Under the pieces are notes generated by a model. It did no database searches. It was not told the origin of the DNA and saw only the letters and a program-made list of their open reading frames with translations. Below, piece after piece: positions 16,601 through 39,524 of a stretch of DNA of 53,337 nt (positions are counted from its first letter, which is position 1; each line of letters starts with the position of its first letter). The stretch covers positions 1 to 53,337 of IMG/VR virus record IMGVR_UViG_3300032892_000071. The stretch is one strand, 5' to 3'. Source of the stretch: a virus. Lineage: Duplodnaviria; Caudoviricetes. A program made the position numbers and the translations under genes.

Positions 16601-18669
16601 ACGCATCCCAGGTCATCACCCCGCTCGGGATCCCATCCCGGCCGGAACCGGGCTGGGTGTTCCGGTCCCCGGCACCCGCCAGGGCACGCACCGGCGCACG
16701 CTGGCAGGCCGCATCCGGCTACGCCTCCCATGTCGTCACCCCCCTCGGCACGCCGCCGAGGCCCGAACCGGGCTGGATCTTCCGCAGCCCGGCTCCCGCA
16801 CGGGCCCGGCTGGGAACCCGCCCCGCACCCGCCGGCGGCGTCGCATCCCAGGTCGTCACCCCCCTCGGCGCGATCCCGCCGCCGCAGCCGGCTGCCTTCC
16901 GCCGCCCCGCCCCGGCCAGGGCCATCTGGCGCGGGATCACCGGGCTCCCGCCGCGGGTCACCGCCTATCAGCGGCCACCCGCCCAAGTCCGCCGGCCGTC
17001 ACCTGCGCGGGCCCTATGGCGTGGCCTGGCGGTCGCCGCCGTCTCAATCGGTGTCACCGTCGCCCAGCGCCCGGCGCCGCAGGTCCGGCGCCCGGTGCCC
17101 GCACGCGCCAAGCTCGGCCCGCAAGGCGCCACCGCAGGCGGTATCGCCAGCGCGGTTATCACCCCGCTCGGGTCACTCCCGGCGCCGCGTAAGGTCCCGC
17201 TGTTCCCGCCGCACATCACCCGCGCCCGCATCGGCTGGAGCACCGTCGCAGGCGGCATTGCCTCGCCCATCGTCACGCCGCTCGGCAGTCTCCCGCCGCC
17301 GCGTAAAGTCCCACTCTTCCCCCCGAAGATAACCAGGGCGCGGGTTGGGCACGGCACCATCGCAGGCGGGATCACAGAGCCCTACCTGATCCCCACGCCG
17401 CAGGCGTATCAGCGGCCCGCCCCGCACATCAAGCGCCCCGCTCCAGCGCGAGGACAGGCAGGCCCGCGCGGGCCAGCCGGCGCCGGCATCGCCTCCCAAA
17501 TCATCACGCCGCTCGGCACCCCGTCGCGGCCAAAGCCGTTCGTCTTCCGCAGCCCGGCACCAGCACGGGGCCGGTTCGGCGCAGGCATCGCCTCCCGGAT
17601 CGTCACCCCGCTCGGGAGCCTCGGGGCACCCCGGCCGTTCGTGTTCCGCTCACCCGCCCCCGCGCGAGCCCGTCTCGGGAACAACGTTGCCGCAGGTGAC
17701 GGGTTCGCCGGGCCCGCCAATGCGGCCGTCACCGCCTACCAGCGCCCACCAGCCCAGGTACGCCGCCCGTCACCTGCCCGCGCTACCTGGCACGGCCAAG
17801 TCGGCCCGGCTCCGGCAGCCGCAGTCACCGCATACCAGCGGACCGCGCCGCAGATCCGGCGCCCGGCACCGGCCCGCGCGCTATGGCGGCACGTCACCGG
17901 GATCCCGCCGGTGGTCACCGCATACCAGCGGACCGCGCCGCAGGTACGCCGCCTAACTCCAGCGCGTGCGCTGTGGCGCGGCGCAGGAGCAGCAGCAACC
18001 CCGCCGGTGGTCACCACCCGGCAGCGGCCCGCGCCGCAGGTCCGCCGCCCTGTCCCGGCGCGGGCGCTATGGCGTGGCTACGCCAGCCGGATCGTCACCC
18101 CCCTCGGCCAGGCCGGCCCGCCGCGGCCGTTCGTATTCCGCTCCCCCGCCCCGGCGCGGGCGCTCTGGCACGGCGCAGCAGTACCAGCCCCGCCGCCGGT
18201 TATCACCGCCCGGCAGCGGCCCGCCCCCCAGATCCGCCGCCCGGCCCCAGCCCGCGCCCGCCTCGGCCCATCAGGCACGACCTCCGCCGGGATCGCCTCA
18301 GCCGTCATCACCCCCATCGGCTACCCCCAGCCGAAGATCACCCCGTTCGTGTGGCGGTCCCCGCTCCACGCAAACGCTCGCCTCGGCCCCCGCGGATCCG
18401 CCGCAGGCGGGATCAACGGCACCCCGCTCATCGCCCCGCTGCCGCCGCAGCCGCCGCTGTTCTGGACCGTCACCGCAGCCCAGCCGCTCACCGTCACCGC
18501 CGCCCCGGCTGTCCCGCTCGCCATCACCATCAACCCGGCGGCGCCGATGACAGCCGACGTGTCCCCCAGCGGCGAACACCTGCCACCCCCCGGGCAGCAG
18601 CACATCCCCGCAGAACCCGAAGTGACCCTGAACCCGGAACTACCGCCGCCCCTCGGGCAGCCGACATGA
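13663..18669 (+). CDS. 1668-aa Pro/Arg-rich repeat protein with one embedded globular beta domain
   Basis: 5-kb open frame; about 20 'VTPLG'-type units plus 'AYQRP..Q(V/I)RRP' units; non-repetitive aromatic-rich domain at about 14245-14775. Confidence 0.75.
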   Translation: MPILPGEHVGGVGGGIASSIVTPLGSLGPPRPFVARNRPLPTRAVTGHGSTGDIPGTLLPYYQISGTGRGGGGIASLTVTPATPPAVTMEQRPPYMRARTQSRAKIGPLNTISTGDGIASQITTPLGKVGPPRPFVARNPLRARARLGNSVQPGDGIAAPGPPLGAPSRPRPFVWRSPLAARGRAAGAGRFSVPMWTLADDFSNPATLTTIWGHSAGGTTISGGAANIPVGGGESTLSPNIGGHWDLTGTYMYAKVTPVVGTGAQTFMIDYVDQNNQLYFAVSSGQISATIVERGVTTFSGYVTYNPAAHQWWRIREQAGTLYFDTSGDGNLWANFWTTTYTVQVSSRIPFFSCTTTGVTGTSLVDNFNVPPLTPGPSRPPATWTGALGLRRAPRRAWAGGSYGPYGGIAGPQPAAAAARLVARPFVARNRVPARARLGPRGGAGAGVASPVVTPLGYPPALAPRPVVVHLPPHRAKVGPGTYVASGRAGVQTPLGFQQQPPPRPVIQHVPPHRAHLGPLGLAAGGVPSAVSTPLGSPSQPAPRPVIRHVPPRRAWVGGSYGPYGGIEAQIPVTLGAAARPRPFVFRSPAPARARLGNNLQTGDGVASQVVTPLGVPSRAKPFVWRSPAPMRGKAGQRGAPAGGVASRVITPLGTPSRPKPFTARNPVPARARLGNNLACGDGQPYPAIYAPLGATGIYGLPGPVTRPISYRPSIILGALPQPPPRPVIVHVPPHRARSGSRGLPGAGIASRIVTPLGSLGPPRPFVYRSPLPPHPAWARLGPRSAPAGGIASRIVTPLGTVGPPKPFIFRSPLPARARLGNNLQLGGGYASAVVTPLGSPSRPRPFIFRSPAPARARLGNNLQPGDGQAVPAVTVTAAAYQRPPVQVKRPVPARALWRGYASAVVTPLGTSSRLRPFVFRSPAPARARVGRNLQPGGGYASYAVTPLGAPPSPAPRPAIQHLPPHRAHLGPLGLAAAGYASQVITPLGIPSRPEPGWVFRSPAPARARTGARWQAASGYASHVVTPLGTPPRPEPGWIFRSPAPARARLGTRPAPAGGVASQVVTPLGAIPPPQPAAFRRPAPARAIWRGITGLPPRVTAYQRPPAQVRRPSPARALWRGLAVAAVSIGVTVAQRPAPQVRRPVPARAKLGPQGATAGGIASAVITPLGSLPAPRKVPLFPPHITRARIGWSTVAGGIASPIVTPLGSLPPPRKVPLFPPKITRARVGHGTIAGGITEPYLIPTPQAYQRPAPHIKRPAPARGQAGPRGPAGAGIASQIITPLGTPSRPKPFVFRSPAPARGRFGAGIASRIVTPLGSLGAPRPFVFRSPAPARARLGNNVAAGDGFAGPANAAVTAYQRPPAQVRRPSPARATWHGQVGPAPAAAVTAYQRTAPQIRRPAPARALWRHVTGIPPVVTAYQRTAPQVRRLTPARALWRGAGAAATPPVVTTRQRPAPQVRRPVPARALWRGYASRIVTPLGQAGPPRPFVFRSPAPARALWHGAAVPAPPPVITARQRPAPQIRRPAPARARLGPSGTTSAGIASAVITPIGYPQPKITPFVWRSPLHANARLGPRGSAAGGINGTPLIAPLPPQPPLFWTVTAAQPLTVTAAPAVPLAITINPAAPMTADVSPSGEHLPPPGQQHIPAEPEVTLNPELPPPLGQPT

Positions 18670-18697
18670 ACAACCCGATACCCCGCCGAGGAGGCGT

Positions 18698-21301
18698 GTG
18701 GCCGCGACATTGACCGCCGAGCAGGAACTCACGTACGCCTCGTTTCCCATCGAAAAGGTTGAGCACACCGCCGACGGCGACCTGCTGGTCTTCGGCAAAG
18801 CCACCGACGGCACCGTCGACTCGGACGAGCAGATCGTCGACCCCGCCTGGTCACAAAAGGCCCTCGCCGACTGGCTGGAGACCGGCGGGAACGTCCGCGT
18901 CCAGCACCAGGCGCAGCGCGACCCGGCCGGGAAAGGCGTCGGAGTCGAGTTCACCCCTGACGGGCATTTCGTCAAGGCCCTCATCGTGGAACCGGTCGCG
19001 AAACGCCTCGTCGAGAAAGGCGTCCTCCGCGCCTACAGCGTGGGCATCTCCCGCCCGGTGATCGAGCGGGACGTCACCGGCAAGGCCAGAGGCGGCCTCA
19101 TCAAGGGCGGAGTCCTGTCCGAGCTGTCCCTGGTGGACAGGCCCGCGAACGGGAACTGCAGCTTCCAGCTGGTCAAGTCCGCCGATGACGGCACCGCCGA
19201 GTTCACCGGCAAGGTGTACGGCGCGGACGGCTTCCTCGCTAAGGCCGCCGCGGATGAGCGGATCACGTCGACGGTGTCGTTCTCCCCGGCGGACATGGCG
19301 AAGCTGCTGACGTTGCGCGCGGAGCTGGAGAAGACCAGCAGCAACGGCAAGCCAGGCGACGGCGACGATGACGGCGATGACGGCGAGCCGGACAGCGATG
19401 ACAGCGACGGCGGAGCCGGCGGCAAGGACGACACCGCCGGTGATGAAAGCGACGTCGAGGCCGACGTCGATGACGCCGACGACGACAGCAAAACCGCCGA
19501 ACCAGACACTGTGAAAGGCGACCTGTCCGCCAAGGACCGCGACGCCCTCCCCGCCTCAAGCTTCGCCTACATCGACTCCCAAGGCGGGAAGCACCTCCCC
19601 GTCCACGACGAAGGGCACGTCCGTTCCGCGCTCGGCCGGTTCAACCAGACCCAGTTCGAAGGCGGCAAAGCGAAACGGAAAGCCGCGAAGAAAATCCTGT
19701 CCCGGGCCAGGTCGATGGGCATCGACGTGTCCGGTGACTCGGCGGTCGCGCAGGCGGCGAAGAAGACCGCCAAACCCGCCGCAGCGAAGACAGCGGGGGA
19801 GAAGTGCGGCACCTGCAACGGCACCGGGAAAATCATGGACGGGCACCGTAAATGCCCCGACTGCGGCGCCGACGGCACCATCGAGCCCGGCGACGAAGGC
19901 GCGAAGGCCGCGGAAGCCGACGTGGCTAAGGCCGGGTCGAAAGCGTGCACGGGGTGCGGGAAGAACTACCACTCCGACTCCCCGGCGAAGTTCTGCGAAA
20001 GCTGCGGGAAGAAACTCCCCGCCGCCGAGAAAGCCGCCAAACCGACCGTCGATGCCGGCGCGATAGGTGAGCACACCGCTCCGGTGCCTGCGCACCGCGA
20101 ACCCGACGGCGACGAGCAGACCGGCCAGGAGCAGTTCGAGAAAGACGCCGGTATCCCCACCGTCTCAGACGCGCCCCTTGAAGTGAAAGCCGCCCGCCGC
20201 CGCGCCCAGATCGGCGCCGGCACCGGCGAGGCGGTCCTGCATGATCTGCTGTGCCCCGCCTACTCCGCGAAGGTCCTCGGCGACACCTACCCGTGGCTCG
20301 GGGATGTCCGCGACGCCGTCGACATCGGCTACTGGCGGCAGAAGGCTGTCGACTCCGCCGCCGGCGCCCCCCTCGAGGAGGCCAGGGCGGCGGCGGACAT
20401 GTGGCGGCACGCCGAAACGTTGAAAGAGTCCGGCCCCGCCGACCTCGCCGACCTCCACGCCGAGATGCACAAGGCGTTCACCGACGCCAACCCCGGCCCT
20501 GGGCATCCGCTGACGCCCGGCGACATGCAAGCCGGCCGGTACAACCGGCCGCTCATCACCGCCGGCCATGAACGCCCGTCCACCGGCTACACCGTAGGCA
20601 AGCCGGACGTCACGATCCCGTCGGGGACACCGGACGCGTCGCAGTACACCCGCGGGCCCGTCACCGCCGGCCACGAACGGCCCGCCCCCTCCAGCGAACC
20701 CGGCTCCAACAGCAAGGTCCCGCCGCCCGCACCGGCCGGGCAGGTCGGGCGGACATTCTACACCAACGCGTCCCGCGACTCCGCCCGCTCCGCGATGGCC
20801 TCCATGCACGACCACATCGCGCAAACGTTCCCCGACCTGTGCCCCATGTCATCCAAGACCGCCCAGCCGCCGGTGATCGAGGCGGAGCCCGACGTCACCA
20901 AGAACGCTGAGCCAGCCAAGCCCAAGAAAATCAAGAAGGTTAAGGCTTCCGCCGTCACCAAAGCGGCGGTAGAAGGCGCCATCACCGGCCCAGACCTGAC
21001 CAAGCAGATCGGCGATCTGCAAGCAGAGCTCGCCAAATCGCGGCGCGACTACGACGAACTCCGCACCCAGGTCGAAGAGATGGCAGCGGCACCGGACCCG
21101 CGGTACGCCCCCTTCAAAGGCGTCATGTCCGGCTACCCGCCAGCCCGGCAGGCGGAGCCTGCCAGCGCAGTACAAAAAGCAGCCAACGCAGCGCAATCAA
21201 CACTGCTCGACGACCTCAACAAAACATGGCGCTACGACCCGGATCCGGCAGCCCGCGAAAACGCCTACGCGGCGATCCGCAAAATCCTGGGCCTCCCATA
21301 G
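18698..21301 (+). CDS. prohead (capsid maturation) protease fused to scaffold-like region with zinc-finger motifs
   Basis: HK97-type protease motifs (NVRVQH, GVLRAYSVG, ELSLVDRPAN); acidic linker; CxxCxGxG/CxxC pairs; C-terminal coiled coil; directly upstream of the capsid gene. Confidence 0.8.
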   Translation: MAATLTAEQELTYASFPIEKVEHTADGDLLVFGKATDGTVDSDEQIVDPAWSQKALADWLETGGNVRVQHQAQRDPAGKGVGVEFTPDGHFVKALIVEPVAKRLVEKGVLRAYSVGISRPVIERDVTGKARGGLIKGGVLSELSLVDRPANGNCSFQLVKSADDGTAEFTGKVYGADGFLAKAAADERITSTVSFSPADMAKLLTLRAELEKTSSNGKPGDGDDDGDDGEPDSDDSDGGAGGKDDTAGDESDVEADVDDADDDSKTAEPDTVKGDLSAKDRDALPASSFAYIDSQGGKHLPVHDEGHVRSALGRFNQTQFEGGKAKRKAAKKILSRARSMGIDVSGDSAVAQAAKKTAKPAAAKTAGEKCGTCNGTGKIMDGHRKCPDCGADGTIEPGDEGAKAAEADVAKAGSKACTGCGKNYHSDSPAKFCESCGKKLPAAEKAAKPTVDAGAIGEHTAPVPAHREPDGDEQTGQEQFEKDAGIPTVSDAPLEVKAARRRAQIGAGTGEAVLHDLLCPAYSAKVLGDTYPWLGDVRDAVDIGYWRQKAVDSAAGAPLEEARAAADMWRHAETLKESGPADLADLHAEMHKAFTDANPGPGHPLTPGDMQAGRYNRPLITAGHERPSTGYTVGKPDVTIPSGTPDASQYTRGPVTAGHERPAPSSEPGSNSKVPPPAPAGQVGRTFYTNASRDSARSAMASMHDHIAQTFPDLCPMSSKTAQPPVIEAEPDVTKNAEPAKPKKIKKVKASAVTKAAVEGAITGPDLTKQIGDLQAELAKSRRDYDELRTQVEEMAAAPDPRYAPFKGVMSGYPPARQAEPASAVQKAANAAQSTLLDDLNKTWRYDPDPAARENAYAAIRKILGLP

Positions 21302-21342
21302 CGCCACCCAGCAACCCCCGCGAGGGGTTCGATAGGAGGCGT

Positions 21343-24300
21343 GTGGCAACCACCACCGCACCCCCGGCCACCGACATCGCGTCCGCCGCAGGCGGCGTGT
21401 TCGAGCAGGCCCCAGCAGAAACCGCCGGAGCACGCGGCCCCGGCGACGTCATCAAAGCCCGCATGCCCAACATGGTCAAAGGCGCCGGCTACATCGGCCC
21501 CGGCGGCAACACCCCCGTCACCGACCAAGCCGAAATCGCCACCCGCACCCACTCCGCCACCATGGCCCTGCGCACCGAAACGTGGCGCGGGTACAACGCC
21601 AAACACGACGTCGTCAATAAGGGCTTCGACCAGGGGTTCCTGAACCAGTTCGGCCGGCTGAAAGCCGCGCTGACGATGCCGTCGGTGCAGGAGCAGGTCG
21701 CCCAGCTTGTGGGGGGGCTCCCCGGCGGCGCGGACGCGGTGAAGTCGTTCACCGCGGGGAACCTCGGGATCGGAACCGTCAACTAGGCGGCCTCACCCGG
21801 CGACGGGTGAGTGAATAACCACGAGAATTGCTGGGACACCCGTACCACCTGGTCACGCCACAGCGTGGCGCGAAAGCGCGAGCGCGACGGCTTGAGAAGC
21901 GGGCCAGAAGGGGCAATCAGCAGCCGAGGGCCTAAAGGCGCATGCCCAAGGTCAAGGTTCAGAGACTCTGTACGTGGGGTCTGGTAAAGTTAAATGGTAT
22001 GACCCGGAAAACGTTGCTCAGTGACGCCGACAAGCGGGAGATCGCAGGGCAGTACGCCAATGGGGCAGGCATCGTGCAGCTTGCCCGCGCGTACTCTTGC
22101 CGGACTAGCCAGATCAACTCGGCCATTGAGGCGAGCGGTACAGCACGCAAGATGCTGACTGCTAGCACGCCCATCGAGTGTCGTCTCCACGACGCGCTCA
22201 AGGCCGCAGGGATCGGCTTCACCACTCAGAAACGCCTAGTCGGCCGGTATGTGGTGGACATCAGCATCCATCAGGCGCCGGTTGTCATTGAGGCAGACGG
22301 AGCCCGGCACCACGCCGGTACCAAAGCCCAGGAACGGGACACGCTACGAGACGCGGCACATGAAGCCGCCGGATACCGCATGTTCCGCTTCAGCGGCAGC
22401 GAGATCAACGCCGACGCGGTGAAGTGCATCCAGAAACTGATAGACGCTTGCGGGCTGGTTCCCGACAAGGAACCCGTTTACGACATCCGCACGAAGTTCA
22501 GCGGCGCCGACCATCCTCGCCATGTCGGCATGTATGAGCTGACCTGCGGCTACTGCGGCGAAACGTTCCTCAACCGGCGGTCGAAGAGGATGTACTGCTC
22601 CCACGAGCACTACATTCTCGGCGTTCAGAAGGGGAAGCCGAAGAGCGCGGAGGTTCGTGCGGCGCTGGCTGAGTCCAACAGGCGCCGCGTATGGACCGAT
22701 GAGGCTCGTGCGAAAGTAAGCGCGTCTCGCGTGGGAAAGCCCACCACAAAGGGGCGTCCCAAGAGTGCCGAGCACCGCGCGAAGATCAGTGCAGCGCTGA
22801 CGGGCCAACGTCAGAGTGATGAGACCCGTGCCAAGAAAAGCGCATCTCATCGCGGCAAGACGATGGATGAGCCAACCCGCGCGAAGATCAGCGCAGCGCT
22901 GACAGGCCGCAAGCGTTCAAACCAGACCAAGATAGAGTCCGAGCCTGCGTGAGAACGCAGGAGCTACCCAGAAATGAGGTAGCCCGCGGTCATCCCTGAT
23001 CGCGAGTAACAACACTGCTCCGGTCTCGTCCCGTTCGATCTCCTTGCACCATCCCGCCTTAGTTAGATAGGGCCGCCGCGCCGTGAGGCGCGGATGAAAA
23101 CTCCGAGAATTGCTGGAAAGCCCGTGCCACCTGCCTGTGCCACAACGTGAGGCGAAAGCCTGAGCGTGACGGCCCGAGAAACCGGCAGAAGGGGTAATCA
23201 GCAGCCGAGCCCGCCTGGCCCCGCGCCGACGGGAAGGTTCACAGACCATGCACGGAGCACCCCTGGTGGGGTGAAGATATGGCCGGGCCTCACGTCGAGA
23301 GCGTGAGAGGCAGACAGCAATGATCTGCCCCACTGTCAAAACGGACAGTTGGTAACAAGCAGCGCATCTACCCCGTATATACAGTATTTCGTAACAAGCT
23401 GCCTAGGCCGCAAGGCCAGGGCACCATGCGCCAAGAACGCGTCATCACCGGCATCTCCGGATCACAAACCGGCGGCCAGGGCGTCGTCGACATCTCCATC
23501 CCAGAACTCGTCAACGCGACCGGCGGCGGGCTGTCGTCGTCGGCGAACTGGCCCAACAACCTGCCAGGCACCGGCGCGCAAACCGAAGTTAATCTCGCTG
23601 TCCCGTACCGTTTCTTCGGCCTTACGGAATCACTGTCGTGGCTGGCGCAGTTCGCCGGCCAAGGCTTCGAAGACATTTCCGCCCTAAACTAACCTGGGGC
23701 CCAGCGTGGTGACGCGCTGGTGAATAACCCTGCTGTATCGGTGAAAGCCCTTCGCCCCGAGGTGATATTCTCGGAACCATGGGTAACGCCGAGGCAACCC
23801 GGCCCGCAGCCGGAGAGTCCGTAGAGGCCATACGCAGGGGATCTGACGAGCTGGAACACCCTGATGCGGACTGCGGCGCTCGCCTCCCAGCGAGTAGCAA
23901 AGTGATTAACACGCCGCATGAGGCACTGTTCCATCAAGCACTACTCCGCGCCCGCCTTAGCTTTGAGACACAGACACATCCTGCTGGCGACAGGTGGGAA
24001 GCGGACATTGAGCTACGCCAAACGCCCATCATCATCGAGGTCACAAACAGCCCCGGACAGACGCGCAACGCTGACAGATACCGGCGCAAGACGGAAGCCT
24101 TCCAGGCTGCCGGGTACCGGGTCTACTGGTTCAGCAACCATATGGCGCGGACCAATGCCGATGCTTGCGTGCAACGGGTGATGAGAGAGAACGGGCTCAC
24201 GCCAGAGGCGGCACCGGCCGTCCTGATCCGGCCTAACCGGATCGGTCATGTGAGGGAACTTAACCCGAACTGGGGCGGCGGCCCGCAGGCGACCGCATGT

Positions 24301-26390
24301 GAGCAGTGCGGCGAGCTTGTCATCGCGGGTAAGCGGAACGGTGGCAAGCGTGCACGGTTCTGTAGTTCGAAGTGCTACGGGAAGTGGATGCACGAGCATC
24401 CTGAGACGGTCAACAATAAGCGCACCATGCCTGATATGCCCGATCTAGCTGACCGGTACGACTCGGGGATGTCTGCGCAGCAGGTTGCCGCCTCCTACGG
24501 CGTGAGCCGCTCCTACGTCATGCATGAGATGCGCAGGCGCGGCATCGCTCTCCGTCCTTCTGGCGGGTACCGTCCGCGGGGCGGCTTCTACCAGAGCGGT
24601 GATCTTCCCGGCTCGTGAAACGTCAGATCATGACATGGTCCGACCCGCATTCGATGACAAAGGTGCGGAGCTAGGCGGAACAGAAACGGCCTAGCCCGTT
24701 GTCCGGCCCGAAACTGGACAACGAGTAACAAAAGTGGGCAAATCTCATATTGCTACAGGAAATGATGCTGGGTTGAGATCATCTTTGCCCAGCCTAAACC
24801 GCGAGAATTGCTGGGACACCCGTGTCACCTGCTCGCACCACAGCGTGGGGCGAAAGCCCGAGCGCGACGGTCCGAGAAGCGAGCAGCAGGGGTAATCAGC
24901 AGCCGAGCCCGCCTGGACCGCATTGCGGCACCGACGGGATGGTTCAGAGACCATGTACGCGGCACCTCACCGAGGTGAAGATATGGCCCGGCCTCACGTG
25001 AGAGCGTGAGAGGCGCGCAGAAATGACGCGCCCGCTCGCCTGCCCGATGGGCGAGAGGTAACAGCGCGGAAGAGTACATGCTGCTCGCTGGGACGTCGCA
25101 GACGCTGCGGCCACCGACTTTGGTGTCGGCGAACACCCGGATACCAGGATCGAACGAGACCGCTGTCAACTCGTCGAATTACGTGTCGATCGGGGTGACC
25201 GCCACCAACTACTACGGTGAGACGGTCTGCTCGACGGTGCTTGACCCGGCGGTCACCAACAACACGTACGTGATCGACCTGACGGTGACGTTGCCGCCTG
25301 GCGCGCTGCAGTGGAACGTGTATGCGCTTACGCAGGCGGGCACTAACACGGTCGCGTCGACGCTGACGAAGGTGGCGTCGGGTATCGGCGGGTCGAAGTA
25401 CACGCTGCAGGGCACGATCCCCACTGTGCAGGTCTCGGGTGGGGCGCCGCCGTCGTCGGACACCTCTACGGGTGCCTCAACCCGGATGGAAGGGATCATC
25501 CCCACTCTGACCGGCCAGTCGGCGAACGCCGGGGTGTACCCCTCCACCTGGCAGGGCGGGTACATTAACCAGTCCGTCGGTACCCACCTCAGCTACAACA
25601 CGATCTACACGGCGCTGGACGCGTTGTGGGAGTCGGCGACCGGTTCCACCAGCCCGGGTGCGTTCCGTGCGGACCCGGCGGAGCTGGTCGGCGACGGCGG
25701 CGACATCATGCGCCTGTCGAATGATGTGATCTCCCAGGGGGCGGCGACGAACTACCGGCTGTTCCTCGACCAGCCCGACGTCGCCGGCGTCCGAGTCGGC
25801 GCTGCGGTGTCGGAATTCCAGAACCCGATCACCCGGTCCATCCTCAAACTGGTGGTCCATCCCTGGTTCACGCAGGGCACCGCGATCCTCATGTCGTACC
25901 AGCTGCCGCAGACGTGGACCAACGTCGCCAACGCGTGGGAAATGACCTGCGTACAAGACTACGCGAGCATTGCTTGGCCGGTTATCGACGCTTCGTTCAG
26001 GTACTCCATCAACAGCGTTCAGTTCTCGCTGAACTGAATAGGTGGCGCGGCAGGGTGACCTGCCGTGGAAAACTGCACTGTTCGGGGAACCCCTCCGCTA
26101 GCCGGGGAATCCCGAGCTTCGGCGATGCCTGCTGGAGTGTAGAGACTGTATGTGCGGGCTCTGTCATGGACGGCCGCCTGGGGCATCACAGGCGTACGGC
26201 CGCAGAGCATGAGACAGTCCGGTCTGCACCGATGGGAAAGGTGCAGAGGCTGGCAGAAATGACCAGCCCGCCCGCCATCCGGCGGGAGGTAACAGATCGC
26301 TTTCTCTATGGTGCCCTGGTCGCAAGCGCGCCTTTCTACTCGGGGATCTTGCAGGGGCTTCAAGTAAGTGACACTACACCCTACAGTTGA
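21343..26390 (+). CDS. major capsid protein, spliced: join(21343-21779,23018-23059,23365-23685,24737-24773,25069-26009,26300-26390), 622 aa
   Basis: exon sum 437+42+321+37+941+91=1869 nt=623 codons; junctions read GIGT-V-SGLVPFDLLAPSR-L-IYPVYTVFRNKLPR...EDISA-L-ANLILLQEMMLG-EEYML...FRYS-I-FLYGALV; position after the protease. Confidence 0.88.
21780..23017 (+). ncRNA. group I intron 1 (1238 nt) in capsid gene, endonuclease ORF in P8 loop
   Basis: P AATTGCTGG 21826, Q AATCAGCAG 21915, R GTTCAGAGACT 21957, S AAGATAGAGTCC 22929; P1 CCGU|C/GGCGG; P3 CCACG/CGTGG; P8 GGTCTGGT/ACCAGACC; terminal G 23017. Confidence 0.92.
21999..22952 (+). CDS. intron-encoded homing endonuclease: Vsr/DUF559-like nuclease + zinc finger + NUMOD3 repeats
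   Basis: YVVDI...VIEADGARHH...RD...GYRMFRF; CGYC..YCS; repeated SAEHRAKISAALTG; 3' end overlaps the S element. Confidence 0.8.
   Translation: MTRKTLLSDADKREIAGQYANGAGIVQLARAYSCRTSQINSAIEASGTARKMLTASTPIECRLHDALKAAGIGFTTQKRLVGRYVVDISIHQAPVVIEADGARHHAGTKAQERDTLRDAAHEAAGYRMFRFSGSEINADAVKCIQKLIDACGLVPDKEPVYDIRTKFSGADHPRHVGMYELTCGYCGETFLNRRSKRMYCSHEHYILGVQKGKPKSAEVRAALAESNRRRVWTDEARAKVSASRVGKPTTKGRPKSAEHRAKISAALTGQRQSDETRAKKSASHRGKTMDEPTRAKISAALTGRKRSNQTKIESEPA
23060..23364 (+). ncRNA. group I intron 2 (305 nt, no ORF)
   Basis: P 23108, Q 23196, R GTTCACAGACCA 23237, S AAGATATGGCCG 23274; P1 GCCU|UA/UAGGGC; P3 CTCCG/CGGAG; P10 UAGAU/AUCUA; terminal G 23364. Confidence 0.9.
23686..24736 (+). ncRNA. 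group I intron 3 (1051 nt) with endonuclease ORF
   Basis: P1 GCCCU|A/UGGGGC; P3 CCCTGC/GCAGGG; R GTAGAGGCCA 23821; P8 GATCTGACG/CGTCAGATC around the ORF body; P7 3' strand TGGTCC 24636; terminal G 24736. Confidence 0.9.
23779..24618 (+). CDS. intron-encoded homing endonuclease: Vsr/DUF559-like nuclease + zinc finger + C-terminal HTH
   Basis: TPHEALF...WEADI...IIIEV...GYRVYWF; NPNW; CEQC..FCSSKC; SAQQVAASYGVS HTH; alternative start GTG 23902. Confidence 0.75.
   Translation: MGNAEATRPAAGESVEAIRRGSDELEHPDADCGARLPASSKVINTPHEALFHQALLRARLSFETQTHPAGDRWEADIELRQTPIIIEVTNSPGQTRNADRYRRKTEAFQAAGYRVYWFSNHMARTNADACVQRVMRENGLTPEAAPAVLIRPNRIGHVRELNPNWGGGPQATACEQCGELVIAGKRNGGKRARFCSSKCYGKWMHEHPETVNNKRTMPDMPDLADRYDSGMSAQQVAASYGVSRSYVMHEMRRRGIALRPSGGYRPRGGFYQSGDLPGS
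24774..25068 (+). ncRNA. group I intron 4 (295 nt, no ORF)
   Basis: 7-bp P1 GCUGGGU|/GCCCAGC; P 24806, Q 24894, R GTTCAGAGACCA 24942, S AAGATATGGCCC 24978; P3 CCGCG/CGCGG; P10 UCUUU/GAAGA; terminal G 25068. Confidence 0.92.
26010..26299 (+). ncRNA. group I intron 5 (290 nt, no ORF)
   Basis: P1 CCAU|C/GGUGG with a hairpin in the loop; P3 CTGCAC/GTGCGG; Q AATCCCGAG 26108; P7 GAGACTG/CAGTCC; terminal G 26299. Confidence 0.9.
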
Positions 26391-26395
26391 CCGTT

Positions 26396-27202
26396 TTATC
26401 CCGTAATGTCCAGTTCGATTTGGCTGGATTGCGGGAGCCTCTTGCGGGCCAGTCCGGGCACGTCGCGGTGCAGCCACGCATCGAGTGCCCGGACTGGGCT
26501 GCCGCTCGCCACGATCGACCATGCGGCGTTGTGCCGCGTGTCCTGGTACGGGCCGCCGACCTTGACGCCCGTATGTGCCTTGATGCGGCCCTGCATCACC
26601 TGAAGGAACGCCAGGGTGCCGGACACGACCGCCCAGCGGTACGGCGGTTCCTGTCGCAGGCTGCCGTCGCCGTCGAAGTAGCCGCAGAGATAGCTGCCTT
26701 CCAGCTCGGGTGGCACGTCCTCAGGCCAGCGGGTGATGAGGCTTTTGCGGTGTATGACGCCGTGGCTGGCGAGGTCCGCGACCAGGCCGGGGGCGCTGAC
26801 CATGAACCTGGCCATCGGGGTTGTTCGGGTCCGGTAATGCGAGATCCGGGCACCGGGCGCGATGTGGTCACGTGCTAGTTCCACCAGGCAGATGTCTTTC
26901 TCATGCAGCTCCAGCTTGAGCTGCCCGGCCTTCGACATTGAGCCATCTGCCGCGAGCAGCCCCAGCAGGTACGCCTTAACCGGCGTATCGATGACCTGGA
27001 AGTAGCCGGGAATGAGCGAGTTGAAGCCCGCCCGGTGCAGGGATGTCAATCCCTCGATCTTGGCTCGCTGATATATGGCGCTGTAGGACCGGCCGAGCTT
27101 CTCTGCGATCAGCCTGGCCGGCAACTTCGTGTAGTTCTCGTGCAGGTAGGCGAGTTCCTCCGTCGTCCATGGAGCCGCCCAGTAGCCCTCTTTAGTTCTC
27201 AC
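26396..27202 (-). CDS. free-standing double-motif LAGLIDADG homing endonuclease with N-terminal Myb/HTH-like segment
   Basis: AYLLGLLAADGS and SYLCGYFDGDGS motifs; WTTEELAYL...IAEKLGRS; converges on the capsid stop. Confidence 0.85.
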   Translation of the reverse strand: MRTKEGYWAAPWTTEELAYLHENYTKLPARLIAEKLGRSYSAIYQRAKIEGLTSLHRAGFNSLIPGYFQVIDTPVKAYLLGLLAADGSMSKAGQLKLELHEKDICLVELARDHIAPGARISHYRTRTTPMARFMVSAPGLVADLASHGVIHRKSLITRWPEDVPPELEGSYLCGYFDGDGSLRQEPPYRWAVVSGTLAFLQVMQGRIKAHTGVKVGGPYQDTRHNAAWSIVASGSPVRALDAWLHRDVPGLARKRLPQSSQIELDITG

Positions 27203-27242
27203 AAGCAGATTCTATACGGCATGCCAAGAGAAAGGGCCCATC

Positions 27243-27533
27243 ATGGCCATTTATGCGGGTGGCCCCGGCTACCAGAAGTCAACGATCGGCAGCAGCATCG
27301 GCACCGTCTACAGCCTGGCCGGAGTGACTAACCCTTACAACATGACCGTTGTCAACACCGGCTCAGCGGTCGTGTACCTCGGCACCAACGCAGTCACGGC
27401 GGCGACGGGGATCCCGCTGGCGTCGGGCGGGCAGCTCACCATCCAGGGCCCGGCGATCGCCCTGTGGGGCATCACCGCTTCGGGGACCGCCTACGTGGAG
27501 GCCGGGCTGTCTACTGTGGCGGCGGTGGACTGA
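27243..27533 (+). CDS. small virion (head decoration-like) protein, paralogue family A
   Basis: NTGSAVVYLG...VT..TGIPL motif shared with 28121, 28611, 28882. Confidence 0.6.
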   Translation: MAIYAGGPGYQKSTIGSSIGTVYSLAGVTNPYNMTVVNTGSAVVYLGTNAVTAATGIPLASGGQLTIQGPAIALWGITASGTAYVEAGLSTVAAVD

Positions 27534-27536
27534 CCG

Positions 27537-27800
27537 ATGACTGATTCGGGTGGGCCGCAGCCTGCGTGGCAGCGGGAACCTGTCGGCCCTGCGTCGGGTT
27601 CCGTGGCCCTGGTGGCGGGGTCGGCGACGGTGTACACGTCGGCGGTGTCGCCTGGTTCAGGGATTCAGCTGACCACGCAGGAGCCAGGTGGTGTGCTCGG
27701 GTCGCATTATGTGGCCGAGACCACGCCAGGGGTGTCGTTTGTTATCGGGTCCACGTCGCCGTCGGATACGTCGACGGTGGCGTGGCAGCTCACCGGCTGA
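27537..27800 (+). CDS. small virion protein, paralogue family B (homologous to the C-terminal domain of 91-3180)
   Basis: IQLT.Q.PGG...YV....GVSFVIGSTSPSDTSTVAW. Confidence 0.65.
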   Translation: MTDSGGPQPAWQREPVGPASGSVALVAGSATVYTSAVSPGSGIQLTTQEPGGVLGSHYVAETTPGVSFVIGSTSPSDTSTVAWQLTG

Positions 27801-27816
27801 GGGAAGGGGCCTGATC

Positions 27817-28119
27817 GTGGCGTACAACTGCACCGGCCTCGGGGCGATGAATTTCGCTGTCGCTGAGGGCGGCACCAGCGACTACCAGGGCCTCGCGGTC
27901 CTGGGCACTGTCCCGGCAGCTGGCCAGGTGACCGTTGCTACTGATGCGGCGCTGGAAGACAATATCCGGATTTTTCTCACGGTCCAGTCGGCTGGCACGG
28001 GCACTGTCGGCGCGCTGTACGTGTCGACGGTCGATAACAGCGCCGGGACGTTCACGATCGCCTCGACGTCTACGACAGACGTGAGCACGGTCGCTTGGCT
28101 GATCACAGGGAGCTGCTGA
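27817..28119 (+). CDS. small virion protein, paralogue family B
   Basis: GAAGGGG RBS, GTG 27817; RIFLT...LYV...GTFTIAST..DVSTVAW. Confidence 0.65.
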   Translation: MAYNCTGLGAMNFAVAEGGTSDYQGLAVLGTVPAAGQVTVATDAALEDNIRIFLTVQSAGTGTVGALYVSTVDNSAGTFTIASTSTTDVSTVAWLITGSC

Positions 28120-28120
28120 G

Positions 28121-28606
28121 ATGGCAACCATTCATACCCCGGTCACCGGGGCCCCGGCGCTGATCTACAGCCCGTCAGCGTCGGGTACGCCGCATGTGAC
28201 GGTCATCAACGAGGGCCCTTCTGCTGTCTACATCGGGCGGGCTGGAGTGACGTCCAGCAGCGGGATGCCGTTGCAGCCACAGCAGGAGCTGTCGCTGCCG
28301 TTCGCGCCGGCCGCGCTGTACGCCGTGGCCAGTGTGGCGTCAGCCGGCACGACCATCAACACGAATCTGGCTTTCAACAGCGGCGGGACGCAGCTGACGT
28401 TCGGCAGCAACTTCTACTCGGCGGCGGTGAACAACACGCAGGCGCAGATCGGGTCGGGCAGCAGCGCCGAGGTGGTGACCATCACCGCCGGCGGGGGCAC
28501 GGGAACGCTGACGGTGTCGGCGCTCGCCTATGACCACCGGACGGCGTCGCCGGTCGGGCCGGTCACACCGGCCGGGTCGGCGGTGCATACCGAGGCGGCG
28601 TGCTGA
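28121..28606 (+). CDS. virion protein, paralogue family A
   Basis: NEGPSAVYIG...VT.SSGMPL; abuts the previous gene. Confidence 0.6.
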   Translation: MATIHTPVTGAPALIYSPSASGTPHVTVINEGPSAVYIGRAGVTSSSGMPLQPQQELSLPFAPAALYAVASVASAGTTINTNLAFNSGGTQLTFGSNFYSAAVNNTQAQIGSGSSAEVVTITAGGGTGTLTVSALAYDHRTASPVGPVTPAGSAVHTEAAC

Positions 28607-28610
28607 CGGG

Positions 28611-28877
28611 ATGGCGATCTCCGCTCAGTTCACGGTGACCGCGGCGGCGCAGCCGCTCATCATGGCGCCGCCGGGGCCGCAGCCGGGGCCGGTCGGCTGG
28701 TGGTACATCACCAACGGCGCCGCTGTCATCTACCTCGGCGGGCCCGGTGTGACCGTCTCGTCCGGCGCGGCCGTGGCCGCGTCGGCGACGCTGTCGGGGT
28801 TCCTGTGGCCGGGTGACGTGATCTGGGCGGTGTCGGCGGGGAGCTCGACGGTTGGCGTGCTGAGAACCGGGAGCTGA
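28611..28877 (+). CDS. small virion protein, paralogue family A
   Basis: ATG 28611; NGAAVIYLGGPGVT..SG..V...LSGFLWPGD. Confidence 0.6.
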   Translation: MAISAQFTVTAAAQPLIMAPPGPQPGPVGWWYITNGAAVIYLGGPGVTVSSGAAVAASATLSGFLWPGDVIWAVSAGSSTVGVLRTGS

Positions 28878-28881
28878 CCCG

Positions 28882-29367
28882 GTGGCCCTTTCGGTGTCGC
28901 CGGTGCTTGTCGGGAACGCCCAGCCGGCTTGCGTTCTCGCCCAGGCGCCTGTCTCGCCCGGGCAGGGGCCGGAAGTGTATGTCCGGCTGACCGTCGGCAT
29001 CGTCCCGGTGTATCTCGGCGGCCCGGGCGTGACCTGGCAGAACGGGGTCCAGGTCGCGGCCGGTGCGGTGTGGACGGGGTACCTGTTCGCCGGTGAGAAG
29101 TTGTGCGCGGTCACGCAGGCTGGGACGTCGCTGGTGAATGTGCTGTTCACCGGTTCCGCGTTCTCGGCGGGCGGCGGCGCGATGCTGGGTTCCTTCCAGC
29201 CGACGATCACCCCGTTTGTGTTTCGTTCCCCTGCGCGGGCCCGGGGCCGGGTCGGTCATGGGGTGGTGCAGGCGGGGCCGTCGGCGCCCCACCCGCCGCC
29301 GTACCCGTACCTTGTCGCCGGAACCGGCACGGCAGGCGGCGGTATCGCCAACCACTGGAACGGCTGA
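28882..29367 (+). CDS. virion protein, paralogue family A with a C-terminal Pro/Arg repeat unit
   Basis: VYLGGPGVT..NG.QV...TGYLFAGE; tail ITPFVFRSPARARGRVG...GGIA. Confidence 0.6.
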   Translation: MALSVSPVLVGNAQPACVLAQAPVSPGQGPEVYVRLTVGIVPVYLGGPGVTWQNGVQVAAGAVWTGYLFAGEKLCAVTQAGTSLVNVLFTGSAFSAGGGAMLGSFQPTITPFVFRSPARARGRVGHGVVQAGPSAPHPPPYPYLVAGTGTAGGGIANHWNG

Positions 29368-29379
29368 AAAGGGGCACCG

Positions 29380-29652
29380 ATGGCACGAGTCGAGCTTCCT
29401 GGTGGCTGCTACGGCCTGGAATGCGCGGACGGCACCAAGTACACCGCTGACCCGGGCGGCCATATCGACGTGTCGGACCGGCACGCCGCCGCGATCAAAA
29501 GCTCGCAGCATGGGCAGACCGGGATGCTGTCCGCGTCGAAGGCGTACCACCTCGGCACCAAAGGTGGCCGGCGCTGCCCCCGGTGCCGGTTCCTCGCCCA
29601 GGTATGGGCGGCTGACTGCCCCCACTGCGGGGCTGCGACCGAAACGGAGTAA
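29380..29652 (+). CDS. small protein with C-terminal zinc ribbon
   Basis: AAGGGG RBS; CPRC...CPHC. Confidence 0.6.
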   Translation: MARVELPGGCYGLECADGTKYTADPGGHIDVSDRHAAAIKSSQHGQTGMLSASKAYHLGTKGGRRCPRCRFLAQVWAADCPHCGAATETE

Positions 29653-29655
29653 CTC

Positions 29656-30270
29656 ATGACGCTTTACGCGAGGTCGGACCTGACCTCGGTGATCATCTCT
29701 GCTGGGAGCGGAGGGTGCGGCACCAGCCACGCCCGACCCGTGACCGCGGGGGCCCCCGCCAAGGTGTGGCAGCTGCGCTGCCCCCAGTGTGAGACCGTCC
29801 TGAAAGGCAGCGACCTGTGGGCCGGGACCGTCGCGGACATCCCCGAGACCCCCGATGAGACCCGGATCCGTGAGGATTACGAGAAACGCGGCGCGAAAGA
29901 CCAGGACCACATGGTCGCGCTCGCCCTGGGGAAGCTGGCCGGGGTTGATGTGCCGGAGTCTTTGACCCGTGTCGTGTCCGGGGCGCAGCCGCACATCCCC
30001 GGGACGCTGCCATGCGCGGGCGGGCATCCGAACCCGGCCGGGGTGAAGTTCTGCGGCGAGTGCGGGACGCCGATGCACCAGCCGGCCGTGCCTGATGAGG
30101 ACGCCGCCCCCCGGCCGCAGGCCGGGCCTGCGGCCGGCGAGGCAGCGGGCCCGGATCTGTCGGCGCTCGGGTACAGCGAGCTGCGGCGCCTGGCGGTGTC
30201 ACGGGGCCTGCCGGGTGCCGGCACCAAAGCCAAGCTGCTGGCGCGGCTGCAGGAGGCCGCCGCAGCATGA
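29656..30270 (+). CDS. zinc-ribbon protein with C-terminal SAP/Rho-N-like helix-extension-helix domain
   Basis: GGAG RBS; CPQC, KFCGECG; LSALGYSELRRLAVSRGLPGAGTKAKLLARL. Confidence 0.65.
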   Translation: MTLYARSDLTSVIISAGSGGCGTSHARPVTAGAPAKVWQLRCPQCETVLKGSDLWAGTVADIPETPDETRIREDYEKRGAKDQDHMVALALGKLAGVDVPESLTRVVSGAQPHIPGTLPCAGGHPNPAGVKFCGECGTPMHQPAVPDEDAAPRPQAGPAAGEAAGPDLSALGYSELRRLAVSRGLPGAGTKAKLLARLQEAAAA

Positions 30271-39000: not shown

Positions 39001-39524
39001 GGAAAAACATCGTCACCGGGCTGATCAACGGGATCACGTCGATGGTCTCCACCCTGACCAGCACCATGACCAGCCTCGGGTCGTCCGCCCTCAGCGCCCT
39101 GAAATCCGCGATCGGGTCACTGTCCCCGTCGGTGCGGTTCCACGAGGAAGGCCGGAACATCGTCCTCGGCCTGATCGGCGGCATCGGCGCGATCAAGCCC
39201 CAGGTGATCAACGCGATGCGTTACCTCGCGCTGGACATGGGCAACGCGTTCCGCGGCGGCTACAGCTTCGGCGGCGGCGGGTTCGGGCAGGGCGGCTGGG
39301 GGCAAGGCGGCGGGGGCGGCGGCTGGGGGCAGGGCGGCTGGGGCGGCGGCTGGGGATGGGGCGCGGCACCCGTCCCCGGCGGCGCCGCGCAAGGCGTCAC
39401 CATCAACGTCCAAGGCTCCGTCCTCGCCGAGAAAGAACTCCAGCAGATCATGCAGCAAGGGGTTCTGCGGTACACCCGCCGTAACCAGGGCAACGGGCTG
39501 TTCCTCGCCGGACGGCAGTCCTAG
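36003..39524 (+). CDS. tape measure protein
   Basis: 1173 aa Ala-rich; TP901-like core; ANPIGLVVIAIAALVAG; 11-periodic Trp repeats; SLSPSVRF. Confidence 0.92.
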   Translation: MAGDTQLPPAVQTFIADTEEWIAGIEEAVESTQELVDAAAEITGAADEMSASMGESAGAVAEATEGMGAAADAAAAQVTAATDDITGATERMGAAADTAAGQVTTASEQVSASADAMAAATDSAAAGVEGAYEKIGTAAETGAAGLGAADTKVTEGAEAMVTSVNSAAAGVEGAYERIGTAAETGAAGLGAADTKVTAGAEEMVSATNTAAAGVEAGYAKMGTAAEEGAAGMASADAKVTAGAAESAEAVEAGAAKQSAAVEESAAKSDTAGEAAVGLGSKMKTAALGLGVAAAASVKMASDFQEMGTQLVTGAGETDKNLQMVQNGILQLSVSTGTSVKQLEAGMYMIESAGDHGAQGLDVLKAAAEGAKTGNADLGSVANAVTSALNAYHEPASAAAAVTSELVETVASGKTHMDDLAKSLGSVLPVAASAHISLAQVGGAMATMTDQGVTARRAAQNLANMIRSLESPSTAAAAEMQSLGLNANTVSTHLGSEGLTGTMNELTEAILKNTKGGMVLVGDMNAMTPASKSLAEGILAGKVSTNDLTTAVKGLTPQQAALVTSFAKTASGATGLKQTFDGAMKTMTGGATGLNVALELGGKQAGVFQGNVKAIGGAAATAGGSVQGFAKTQQDFNFKLEQAKNAAEAVSYSLGDALLPAATKVMGVIADFGGWLAKNQAAAVALAAVIGGTLSVIIGGKMISSIKDAVDAFKMLADSELVQAAASKVAAAAQWLLDAAMDANPIGLVVIAIAALVAGIIYAYTHFKTFRDAINDVGRAIATVFDWVKSHWQLILGILTGPIGAAVIFIVAHWKQIQADAAAAWNAIVAFLKGVWTTITSDISTAWNAIVTWFKTLWNGWVTFVNTTLNTIKTDLSNAWTAITSAVQTAWNAIVTWFKTLWNGWVTFVNTTLTTIENALKAAWTAVTTAIQTAWNAITAWFKTWWTTLTAAFTAAYTLIENNLKQAWTDVATAATNAWNTIKTDIENIVKTIATDMVTLGKNIVTGLINGITSMVSTLTSTMTSLGSSALSALKSAIGSLSPSVRFHEEGRNIVLGLIGGIGAIKPQVINAMRYLALDMGNAFRGGYSFGGGGFGQGGWGQGGGGGGWGQGGWGGGWGWGAAPVPGGAAQGVTINVQGSVLAEKELQQIMQQGVLRYTRRNQGNGLFLAGRQS

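Follow-up and report, generated by a model that had tools for sequence, protein, structure and literature searches.

Landthaler and Shub are said to have described, in 1999, a single gene of Staphylococcus phage Twort, orf142, that carries three group I introns. The subject here is a gene at positions 21343 to 26390 of IMG/VR virus record IMGVR_UViG_3300032892_000071, a linear record of 53,337 bases that was analysed over its whole length and is called the window below. This gene is very probably the HK97-fold major capsid gene of an uncultured siphovirus-like Actinomycetota phage, with five group I introns interrupting it. Phage capsid genes that hold a single intron have been described before: the Cluster J mycobacteriophage LittleE has one spliced intron in its major capsid gene and a tail gene of BAKA has another (Pope et al. 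2013, PMC3706429), and an intron in the Tuc2009 capsid gene is cited in the same paper. Splicing in LittleE was demonstrated by reverse-transcription PCR (RT-PCR) and N-terminal sequencing, and the intron is termed "most likely group I", without covariation analysis in the text available from that paper (PMC3706429). Outside phages, the capsid gene of Faustovirus E12 has 12 introns, five of them group I and two with homing endonucleases (Cherif Louazani et al. 2018, PMC6247863). In the Jug jumbo phages, metatranscriptome reads support splicing of 37 of 76 predicted introns (Sci Adv 2026, PMC12880540), and in the available text on group I introns of Bastillevirinae the word 'capsid' occurs 0 times (Weglewska et al. 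2025, PMC11878797). An earlier reading of the window, made from sequence alone (the sequence-only reading), stated that phage genes usually hold one to three such introns and that these are mostly described in nucleotide-metabolism, polymerase, terminase and lysin genes, which is consistent with the parts consulted of PMC3706429 and PMC11878797.

Removal of the five inserts, which lie between 21780 and 26299, leaves six exons that join into an open reading frame (ORF) of 1869 nucleotides (nt), with 622 codons and a single terminal stop (Table 1). Together the inserts take up 3179 of the 5048 nt of the locus. A standard ORF listing of 21343-26390 on the plus strand gives capsid fragments only, with two unrelated ORFs of 336 and 279 amino acids (aa) interspersed among them. 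Many short public proteins (P0133-P0270) start or end at exon boundaries (profile positions 156-165, 273 and 278); they have probably been produced by gene callers from capsid genes that introns split in other metagenomes. The exon and insert boundaries, the joined ORF and the intronic total all agree with those put forward in the sequence-only reading, and its expectation that ordinary gene callers would miss the capsid is in line with the fragments.

Uninterrupted homologues of the joined protein number in the hundreds and are 570-630 aa long. When only longer proteins were admitted, exon 5 as the query gave 488 matches at expectation values (E) up to 0.001; among the 120 matches listed, lengths are 572-626 aa, with 60-71% identity over 98-100% of exon 5, and a few come from NCBI Streptomyces genomes, where they are named just 'hypothetical protein'. 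When six uninterrupted homologues were compared with the window by tblastn, each (6/6) aligned as six colinear pieces that together cover all homologue residues. For P0001, which is 77.6% identical to the joined protein, the pieces are 1-153, 147-178, 161-265, 266-305, 278-590 and 591-619. The four longer exons are found with E of 1e-142 to 1e-9, and the two micro-exons with E of 1e-4 to 0.03. When the joined protein was aligned with 40 homologues by MAFFT, no homologue (0/40) showed a gap within eight residues of junctions 2-5, and the sole gap column at junction 1 comes from an insertion that P0001 alone has, so that junction-derived gaps number 0/40. Both micro-exon segments are invariant or nearly so across the family, the exon 2 peptide being invariant in the family alignment. 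The PHROG family phrog_13692 ('unknown function') also matches colinearly, with exon 3 at profile positions 51-134 and exon 5 at 230-467 (E 6e-27). Alignment to intron-less homologues had been proposed earlier as a check, with certain peptides across the junctions quoted as predictions; the homologues bear out the order of the exons, and the quoted junction peptides are the family consensus. Among deposited phage genomes, megablast of 18000-30000 gave no match, and tblastn of exon 5 matched only Thermoanaerobacterium phage THSA-485A (27.5% identity, annotated as a hypothetical protein).

Of the related loci, L083 is the closest, and at sites 1 and 2 it offers a natural allele free of introns. 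Its DNA is continuous over window junctions 1 and 2 and aligns without gaps to the joined exons, and after splicing 522 of the 622 residues are identical. L083 carries introns of its own: two occupy sites 4 and 5, and a third lies 9 nt downstream of window site 3; the intron at site 5 is the same in both. The intron of the site-3 region in L083 bears an ORF, and the micro-exon that follows is 28 nt instead of 37 nt (L083:6630-7714 against window 23680-24773). Over 615 aligned codons the proportion of synonymous differences (pS) between the window and L083 is 0.473 and that of nonsynonymous differences (pN) is 0.105, with a ratio of nonsynonymous to synonymous rates (dN/dS) of 0.15. The micro-exons follow the same pattern (exon 2, pN 0.036/pS 0.52; exon 4, pN 0.000/pS 0.25). 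Thus, the split gene evolves as a coding gene, and its exons are under purifying selection.

All five inserts are supported as group I introns with the P1-P9 topology and the P3/P7 pseudoknot. A U precedes each insert and a G ends it (5/5), and in each the splice-site U·G pair lies in a P1 helix of 4-7 base pairs (bp) (5/5). The exon and guide strands of P1 are CCGU/GCGG in intron 1, GCCU/GGGC in intron 2, GCCCU/GGGGC in intron 3, GCUGGGU/GCCCAGC in intron 4 and CCAU/GUGG in intron 5; the guide sequence differs in every intron, and each matches its own exon. The terminal G sits at the only junction that restores the conserved peptide, in 5/5 introns. The first in-frame stop begins 5, 5, 5, 1 and 26 nt past the 5' splice sites of introns 1-5, respectively, and in intron 4 it is a TGA that forms the first intron codon. 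The Rfam group I model RF00028, when aligned to intron 2, puts the P1 U·G exactly at 23059. The sequence-only reading had named a P1 with a U-G pair, a terminal G and a P3 helix for every insert, and all of these were located; its assignment of the inserts to group I agrees with the topology and covariation described below and with the covariance-model searches.

The introns fall into two types, A and B, which are local descriptions and not assignments to established group I subgroups. Type A (introns 1, 2 and 4) has cores of about 80% identity, a long P5 extension and a short P8; the 5' core of intron 1 is 79% identical to that of intron 2. Type B (introns 3 and 5) has a short P4-P6 domain and a long P8, intron 3 being assigned to it by model match. 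Both share a 3' module of P9, P9.1 with a AGAAAUGA loop, P9.2, GUAACA and the terminal G. ORF-less introns were gathered from related capsid loci, with boundaries set by peptide alignment plus the U/G rule. For 11 type B introns (alignment A3), RNAalifold gave the canonical nested topology, with 70 pairs of which 58 show compensatory changes, and its consensus holds P2, P3, P4-P6, P8, P9, P9.1 and P9.2 in both types. The P7 pseudoknot was added to the consensus by hand, and P7 covaries. With P7 included, 94.2% of 833 cells at 76 type B pairs are paired, against 69.5% in shuffled alignments (0/500 as high) and 32-37% when the strands are slid, with changes on both sides in 61/76 pairs. For six type A introns (alignment A4, which includes intron 2), 94.5% of cells at 74 pairs are paired, against 79.4% shuffled (0/500) and 32-38% slid, with double changes in 40/74 pairs. 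The structures were derived from the same alignments on which they were tested, which somewhat favours them, although the slid controls and the double changes are still far apart. Pairing kept at 94% through compensatory changes indicates continuing selection for folding. In introns 1 and 3, helices P3, P7 and P8 pair at 5-8 of 5-8 positions over the ORF-containing loops, with perfect pairing in intron 1 over a loop of 940 nt; thus, long-range P7 and P8 close the core, and the ORFs sit in the P8 loops.

A covariance model, R1, was built from the 11 type B introns, of which intron 5 is the sole member from the window. R1 matches all five inserts (Table 1), in two parts for introns 1 and 3, and across all 53,337 bases it finds nothing else below E 0.01. 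The matches overrun the intron ends by 4-6 nt because the model includes 6 nt of 3' exon.

The identity of the gene as one that encodes an HK97-fold major capsid protein is supported by structure modelling. Sequence searches of the PDB with profiles A1 and A2 gave chance-level matches only. A protein-atlas look-up gave clusters with SU10_MCP in 15% of members, and SU10_MCP matches weakly in 3 of 71 diverse family members (best E 0.0011). These 71 relatives were taken for modelling from a profile search of 1.84 billion representatives (777 matches, E up to 0.001). A first structure model, from the shallow alignment A1, had a mean predicted local distance difference test score (pLDDT) of 49 and was discarded. 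With the 71 relatives, the AlphaFold model of P0001 reached a pLDDT of 80.6 and a predicted template modelling score (pTM) of 0.72. A Foldseek search of the PDB with this model gave 105 matches with E at most 0.001, of which the top-listed rows are phage capsids or encapsulin. The order is Pa223 (E 9.4e-12), then SPO1, SU10, D3, T5 and HK97, with template modelling (TM) scores normalised by target of up to 0.68; for HK97 (1ohg_A) E is 3.8e-5 and TM by target 0.67. The BFVD matches of the model are annotated major capsid proteins. The capsid identity that the sequence-only reading assigned is thereby upheld for the homologue. In the model, introns 3 and 4 fall in the coding region of a long helix (residues 262-284), of which the exon 4 peptide forms a part and which would correspond to the spine helix.

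Intron 1 carries a predicted homing endonuclease of the DUF559/Vsr-like PD-(D/E)XK type with NUMOD3. Its ORF matches the Pfam families DUF559 (PF04480; E 1.9e-13, 50.6 bits against a cut-off of 20.6), NUMOD3 (PF07460; E 3e-11, 43.5 bits against 20.4) and the restriction-endonuclease family MTES_1575 (PF18741; 38.6 bits against 38.2), as well as the PHROG homing endonuclease family phrog_314. The last codons of this ORF overlap the P8 3' strand, the P7 3' strand and P9. The intron 3 ORF has weak PHROG matches to HNH endonucleases (E 1e-3 to 3e-3), and probably encodes a homing endonuclease, degenerate or divergent, that has a helix-turn-helix domain.

Table 1. Positions of the exons, introns, model matches and neighbouring genes in the window
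Feature	Position	Strand	Remarks
Ribosome-binding site and start of capsid gene	21333..21345	+	Shine-Dalgarno-like GGAGG 21335-21339 and GTG start 21343-21345, read from the sequence; P0001 residue 1 aligns at 21343
Exon 1, 437 nt, aa 1-146	21343..21779	+	helical N-terminal part (secondary structure of P0001 model); tblastn P0001 1-153, E 9e-66
Exon 2, 42-nt micro-exon	23018..23059	+	encodes (S)GLVPFDLLAPSR; tblastn E 1e-4 to 2e-3, 6/6 homologues
Exon 3, 321 nt, aa 160-267	23365..23685	+	tblastn E 1e-51, 85% identity
Exon 4, 37-nt micro-exon	24737..24773	+	encodes (L)ANLILLQEMMLG; tblastn, 6/6 homologues; junction alignment
Exon 5, 941 nt, aa 280-593	25069..26009	+	tblastn E 6e-142
Exon 6, 91 nt, aa 593-622	26300..26390	+	TGA stop 26388-26390; tblastn 79-97% identity, E 1e-9 to 8e-12
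Intron 1, 1238 nt, type A	21780..23017	+	endonuclease ORF (predicted) in P8 loop
Intron 1 helices	P1 21776-21779/21787-21790; P3 21819-21823/21973-21977; P7 21964-21969/22934-22939; P8 21978-21984/22922-22928		terminal G 23017
Intron 2, 305 nt, type A	23060..23364	+	no ORF; RF00028 full-length; 5-bp P10 candidate
Intron 3, 1051 nt, type B	23686..24736	+	ORF in P8 loop
Intron 3 helices	P1 23681-23685/23696-23700; P3 23728-23733/23834-23839; P7 23826-23831/24635-24640; P8 23840-23847/24622-24629		terminal G 24736
Intron 4, 295 nt, type A	24774..25068	+	no ORF; P1 7 bp 24767-24773/24787-24793; P10 5 bp 25069-25073/24782-24786
Intron 5, 290 nt, type B	26010..26299	+	no ORF; P1 CCAU 26006-26009 with GUGG 26042-26045
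R1 match, intron 1, 5' part	21771-21858		12.5 bits, E 0.0073
R1 match, intron 1, 3' part	22826-23022		49.3 bits, E 2.1e-14
R1 match, intron 2	23054-23368		67.8 bits, E 3.3e-20
R1 match, intron 3, 5' part	23680-23910		42.2 bits, E 3.6e-12
R1 match, intron 3, 3' part	24565-24741		38.9 bits, E 3.8e-11
R1 match, intron 4	24884-25074		63.6 bits, E 6.9e-19
R1 match, intron 5	26026-26305		277.7 bits, E 5.7e-86
Intron 1 ORF, predicted endonuclease	21999..22952	+	open from 21942; 21999 is the first in-frame ATG within the P8 loop
Intron 3 ORF	23902..24618	+	open from 23779; GTG 23902 is the first in-frame start within the P8 loop
Capsid fragment in ORF listing, 186 aa	ending 21786	+	
Capsid fragment in ORF listing, 88 aa	23426-23692	+	
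Capsid fragment in ORF listing, 319 aa	25078-26037	+	
1668-aa ORF, head module	13663-18669	+	one weak PHROG match, phrog_14065, unknown function, E 8e-10
867-aa ORF directly upstream of capsid gene	18698-21301	+	weak N-terminal protease match
Free-standing LAGLIDADG-type endonuclease ORF, 268 aa	26396-27202	-	begins 6 nt past capsid stop
Tape measure gene	36003-39524		downstream of capsid gene

In the relatives, the capsid gene is split by inserts of more than 100 nt in 18 of 80 related IMG/VR loci (tblastn), and more sensitive mapping gave up to nine exon pieces, in L080. R1 was run over the same 80 loci (1,135,082 bases) and gave 61 matches in 21 loci, all on the capsid strand. Of these, 51 lie inside the span of the capsid high-scoring segment pairs, and the other 10 abut that span because terminal exons are too short for tblastn. 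Thus, all 61 lie within or abut the capsid gene, and none is found in the flanks of up to 8 kb on either side. Counted by the 3' module, a crude motif test that probably gives one too many each for L008 and L041, there are about nine introns in L080, six to seven in L041, five in L070 and L072 (which have identical R1 match patterns), three in L013 and L083, and one or two elsewhere. The figure of about nine rests on the count of 3' modules and not on a verified ORF, as exon reconstruction in L080 failed at two junctions; one junction there has no terminal G that would restore the peptide. L080 (4840-9941) is a low-GC relative, with 43-53% G+C in its intron matches.

Insertion sites vary among loci and are sometimes just 9-11 nt apart, with neighbouring sites in one conserved stretch used by different introns, as between L083 and the window. 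The five sites of the window have a mean conservation of 0.526, against 0.419 overall, and 866 of 20,000 random five-site sets were as high, so that the sites lie in above-average conserved segments with modest significance. The type A core, taken as a pair of conserved motifs separated by 65-95 nt, was found in at least 116 IMG/VR viral stretches, and among 80 examined loci (L086-L165) it lies in or next to this capsid family in only 13. It is not specific to this family. Ten upstream exons from other type A loci gave two other major head protein families (L112, L115), one DnaB-like helicase (L141), one endonuclease and six without a match.

The proposed route from gene to protein takes actual splicing, full autocatalysis and endonuclease activity as presumed, and its scheme is drawn from the established group I mechanism. 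A late transcript of roughly 5 kb would fold into five ribozymes, each docking its own 5' exon end on its own guide sequence to form P1 with the U·G pair. An external guanosine would cleave after that U, the freed exon would attack after the terminal G, and the six exons would be ligated into an mRNA of 1869 nt that encodes the 622-aa capsid protein. The in-frame stops near the intron starts may release ribosomes that enter unspliced RNA. The endonucleases of introns 1 and 3 would spread the introns into intron-less capsid alleles by homing, and the three ORF-less introns may be dependent on the others, or relics.

Several observations weigh against a capsid gene that is spliced at five group I introns. 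The Rfam scan of the window at the gathering threshold gave 0 matches. In E-value mode, RF00028 aligns over its full length with introns 2 and 4 (49.0 bits, E 2e-10, and 48.2 bits, E 3.6e-10, respectively), both 1-2 bits below the cut-off of 50, and introns 1, 3 and 5 were unreported at E up to 10, introns 1 and 3 being split by ORF-bearing loops of about 0.8-0.9 kb. This search had been suggested in the sequence-only reading, and it bore that reading out for introns 2 and 4, near the threshold by E-value, and failed it at the gathering threshold and for the other three introns. P1 is only 4 bp in introns 1, 2 and 5, and none but introns 2 and 4 show a P10 helix, of 5 bp. Neither the exons nor P0001 match any Pfam family, and the evidence on fold comes from P0001, the intron-less homologue, in place of the joined protein. 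The intron 3 ORF falls below the Pfam cut-off for DUF559 (17.6 bits against 20.6) and for helix-turn-helix families. The record is a metagenome contig with an estimated completeness of 42%. Three tandem introns with similar cores flank the 42-nt and 37-nt exons, which invites exon skipping; since skipping is documented for phage group I introns in tandem (PMC11878797, as far as its available text goes), the splicing efficiency needed for a capsid is not assured. In L080, a 57-nt insert at about 5554-5610, between 'VPFDL' and 'APSRLI', has an in-frame stop and a P2-like hairpin. It may be an intron remnant, a mark of a decaying gene or a splice variant, and thus some invaded genes may be decaying.

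The estimated completeness of 42%, the degenerate look of the intron 3 ORF, the documented exon skipping and the insert in L080 would favour a different reading, in which the introns are genuine but the gene yields no working capsid: it would be decaying within a defective or cryptic element, and some of its introns would fail or mis-splice, for example by skipping a micro-exon. Such decay is very unlikely for the window, as none of its six exons is broken and together they read in frame to a single terminal stop, dN/dS and the micro-exon pN values are low, the ribozyme helices are kept paired through compensatory changes, and every intron's guide fits its own exon. Still less probable is an assembly artefact, in which the repeated cores of co-occurring phages were stitched into a chimeric contig and no single genome has five introns. 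The roughly 80% identity among the cores of introns 1, 2 and 4 would favour such stitching, summed contig depth over the type A cores (bins 23010-23230 and 24778-24998) reaches 2-3 times the flanking depth in each of the four wetland metagenome runs, and Logan contigs break inside intron cores. Many contigs also link exon ends to differing introns, e.g. 24774, then 27 other letters, then a core like 23104; thus, co-occurring relatives carry other introns at the same sites. Error-free contigs of run X1 nevertheless cross several junctions: 20800-23168 is spanned from exon 1 through intron 1 and exon 2 to the beginning of intron 2, 23191-23461 from intron 2 to exon 3, 23432-24811 from exon 3 through intron 3 and exon 4 to intron 4, and 24937-25776 from intron 4 to exon 5. 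A contig of run X2 spans 26247-26416, from intron 5 to exon 6. X1 and X2 may be the source sample, and hence not independent. In addition, related loci from other records independently show three to about nine introns in one capsid gene, and the exons of the window form one coherent protein.

That the inserts are inteins, or introns of another class (group II or bulge-helix-bulge), is scarcely credible, although inteins are common in actinophage structural and replication genes (in the literature as partly consulted). A stop in the exon frame lies 1-26 nt into every insert, so that intein read-through is impossible, and 4/5 junctions split a codon. The insert RNA fits the group I family and topology, and Rfam reported no group II or other intron family. 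The intein and group II readings were rejected on these in-frame stops and the RNA structure. A capsid gene interrupted by five group I introns remains the preferred reading.

The phage would be an uncultured soil or wetland actinophage, and an actinobacterial host is inferred. The window DNA occurs in wetland metagenome runs, and a look-up of sequencing runs that contain the locus gave no RNA run. Relatives of the capsid, including prophage ones, are found in Streptomyces and Actinoallomurus genomes, and G+C across the region is 58-73%. No clean intron-less joint was found in the four wetland metagenome DNA runs, where the joints are mostly contigs of related phages with other introns at the same or nearby sites.

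Among the neighbouring genes, the 867-aa ORF directly upstream of the capsid gene has a weak N-terminal match to the head maturation protease family phrog_9427 (E 5e-4), a long acidic low-complexity middle and several CxxC pairs, and may be a protease-scaffold fusion. With this ORF on one side of the gene and the tail genes, including that for the tape measure protein, on the other, the arrangement would be compatible with a capsid gene. The free-standing ORF downstream matches LAGLIDADG_3 (24.0 bits against a cut-off of 22.5) and phrog_4645 'endonuclease' (E 1.3e-30), with a helix-turn-helix-like match at its N-terminus; R1 finds no intron around it, and the encoded enzyme may target the capsid region of relatives. 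No portal or terminase gene was identified among the window ORFs tested.

Across the family, distinct insertion sites number over a dozen, individual genes hold zero to about nine introns, and different relatives use alternative sites that lie close together. Tentatively, and with doubt prevailing, this HK97-fold capsid family of actinophages could be a hot spot for group I introns that has not been described before, with the introns of these loci restricted to the capsid gene and in a role beyond parasitism. In the boldest form of this proposal, the intron endonucleases may serve as arms against co-infecting relatives by cutting capsid alleles that lack introns, by analogy with the interference competition reported for the ΦPA3 intron endonuclease (from a source consulted in part), and the need to fold five ribozymes would tie the production of capsid protein to the cell's physiological state.

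The capsid protein is needed in hundreds of copies per virion, and on the five-intron reading its mRNA would exist only after five RNA-catalysed splicing events. If the phage is viable, splicing of tandem group I introns in bacteria could surpass by far, in efficiency and accuracy, what has been seen in the few cases studied. The locus and its relatives form a natural test set, with two intron lineages, three near-identical cores with different guides and relatives with zero to about nine introns, that could serve studies of guide-sequence specificity, exon skipping, the spread of introns within a gene and endonuclease-mediated phage competition. As gene callers fragment such capsid genes, capsid-based detection and classification of soil actinophages would miss or mis-size them.

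Twort reportedly resembles the window in having tandem self-splicing introns of group I within one protein-coding gene of a phage, with exon skipping as a known consequence, and reportedly differs in its three introns against five, in being a low-GC Firmicute phage and in its intron subgroup, IA2. The Faustovirus capsid fold, which we take to be a double jelly-roll, is unlike the HK97 fold. The likeness to Faustovirus E12 lies in a viral major capsid gene that is broken into many exons, 13 in that case and as short as 13 nt; it differs as a eukaryotic giant virus with an AT-rich genome, seven spliceosome-like introns and splicing shown by RNA-seq (PMC6247863). LittleE is alike in that an actinophage major capsid gene is interrupted, with the exon ending in U and the intron in G, by an intron that has a homing-endonuclease ORF and a related ORF-less copy in another structural gene (PMC3706429). 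The LittleE gene has one intron with its endonuclease on the opposite strand (PMC3706429); in the window the introns number five, two of them with a same-strand ORF in P8, and there are two micro-exons. Bastillevirinae share genes split by two or three group I introns, most of them with a nuclease ORF in a loop, a small internal exon between two introns, and exon skipping in the terminase gene; the host genes differ, being those for DNA polymerase, terminase and nucleotide metabolism, with at most three introns per gene in the text available (PMC11878797). The Jug phages are similar in that many group I introns and homing endonucleases fragment essential genes, and differ in having about 18.5 small introns per genome of 360-400 kb spread across many genes, with terL in two or three fragments; the available part of that paper does not describe a multi-intron capsid gene (PMC12880540).

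A literature search that left subscription journals mostly, and supplements, outside its reach gave three as the highest number of group I introns published for any one phage gene; its only phage match for higher numbers was a Staphylococcus phage genome over which five introns are spread. Within the same reach, in the literature on Streptomyces phages, actinobacteriophages and HK97, no group I intron-rich capsid locus like that of the window was found. An earlier report is possible; compared with the systems above, what is new here is the density of introns and its family-wide pattern (five in the window and about nine in a relative, all in the structural gene that is expressed most strongly), the micro-exons, the two intron lineages and, in these loci, the confinement of the introns to the capsid gene.

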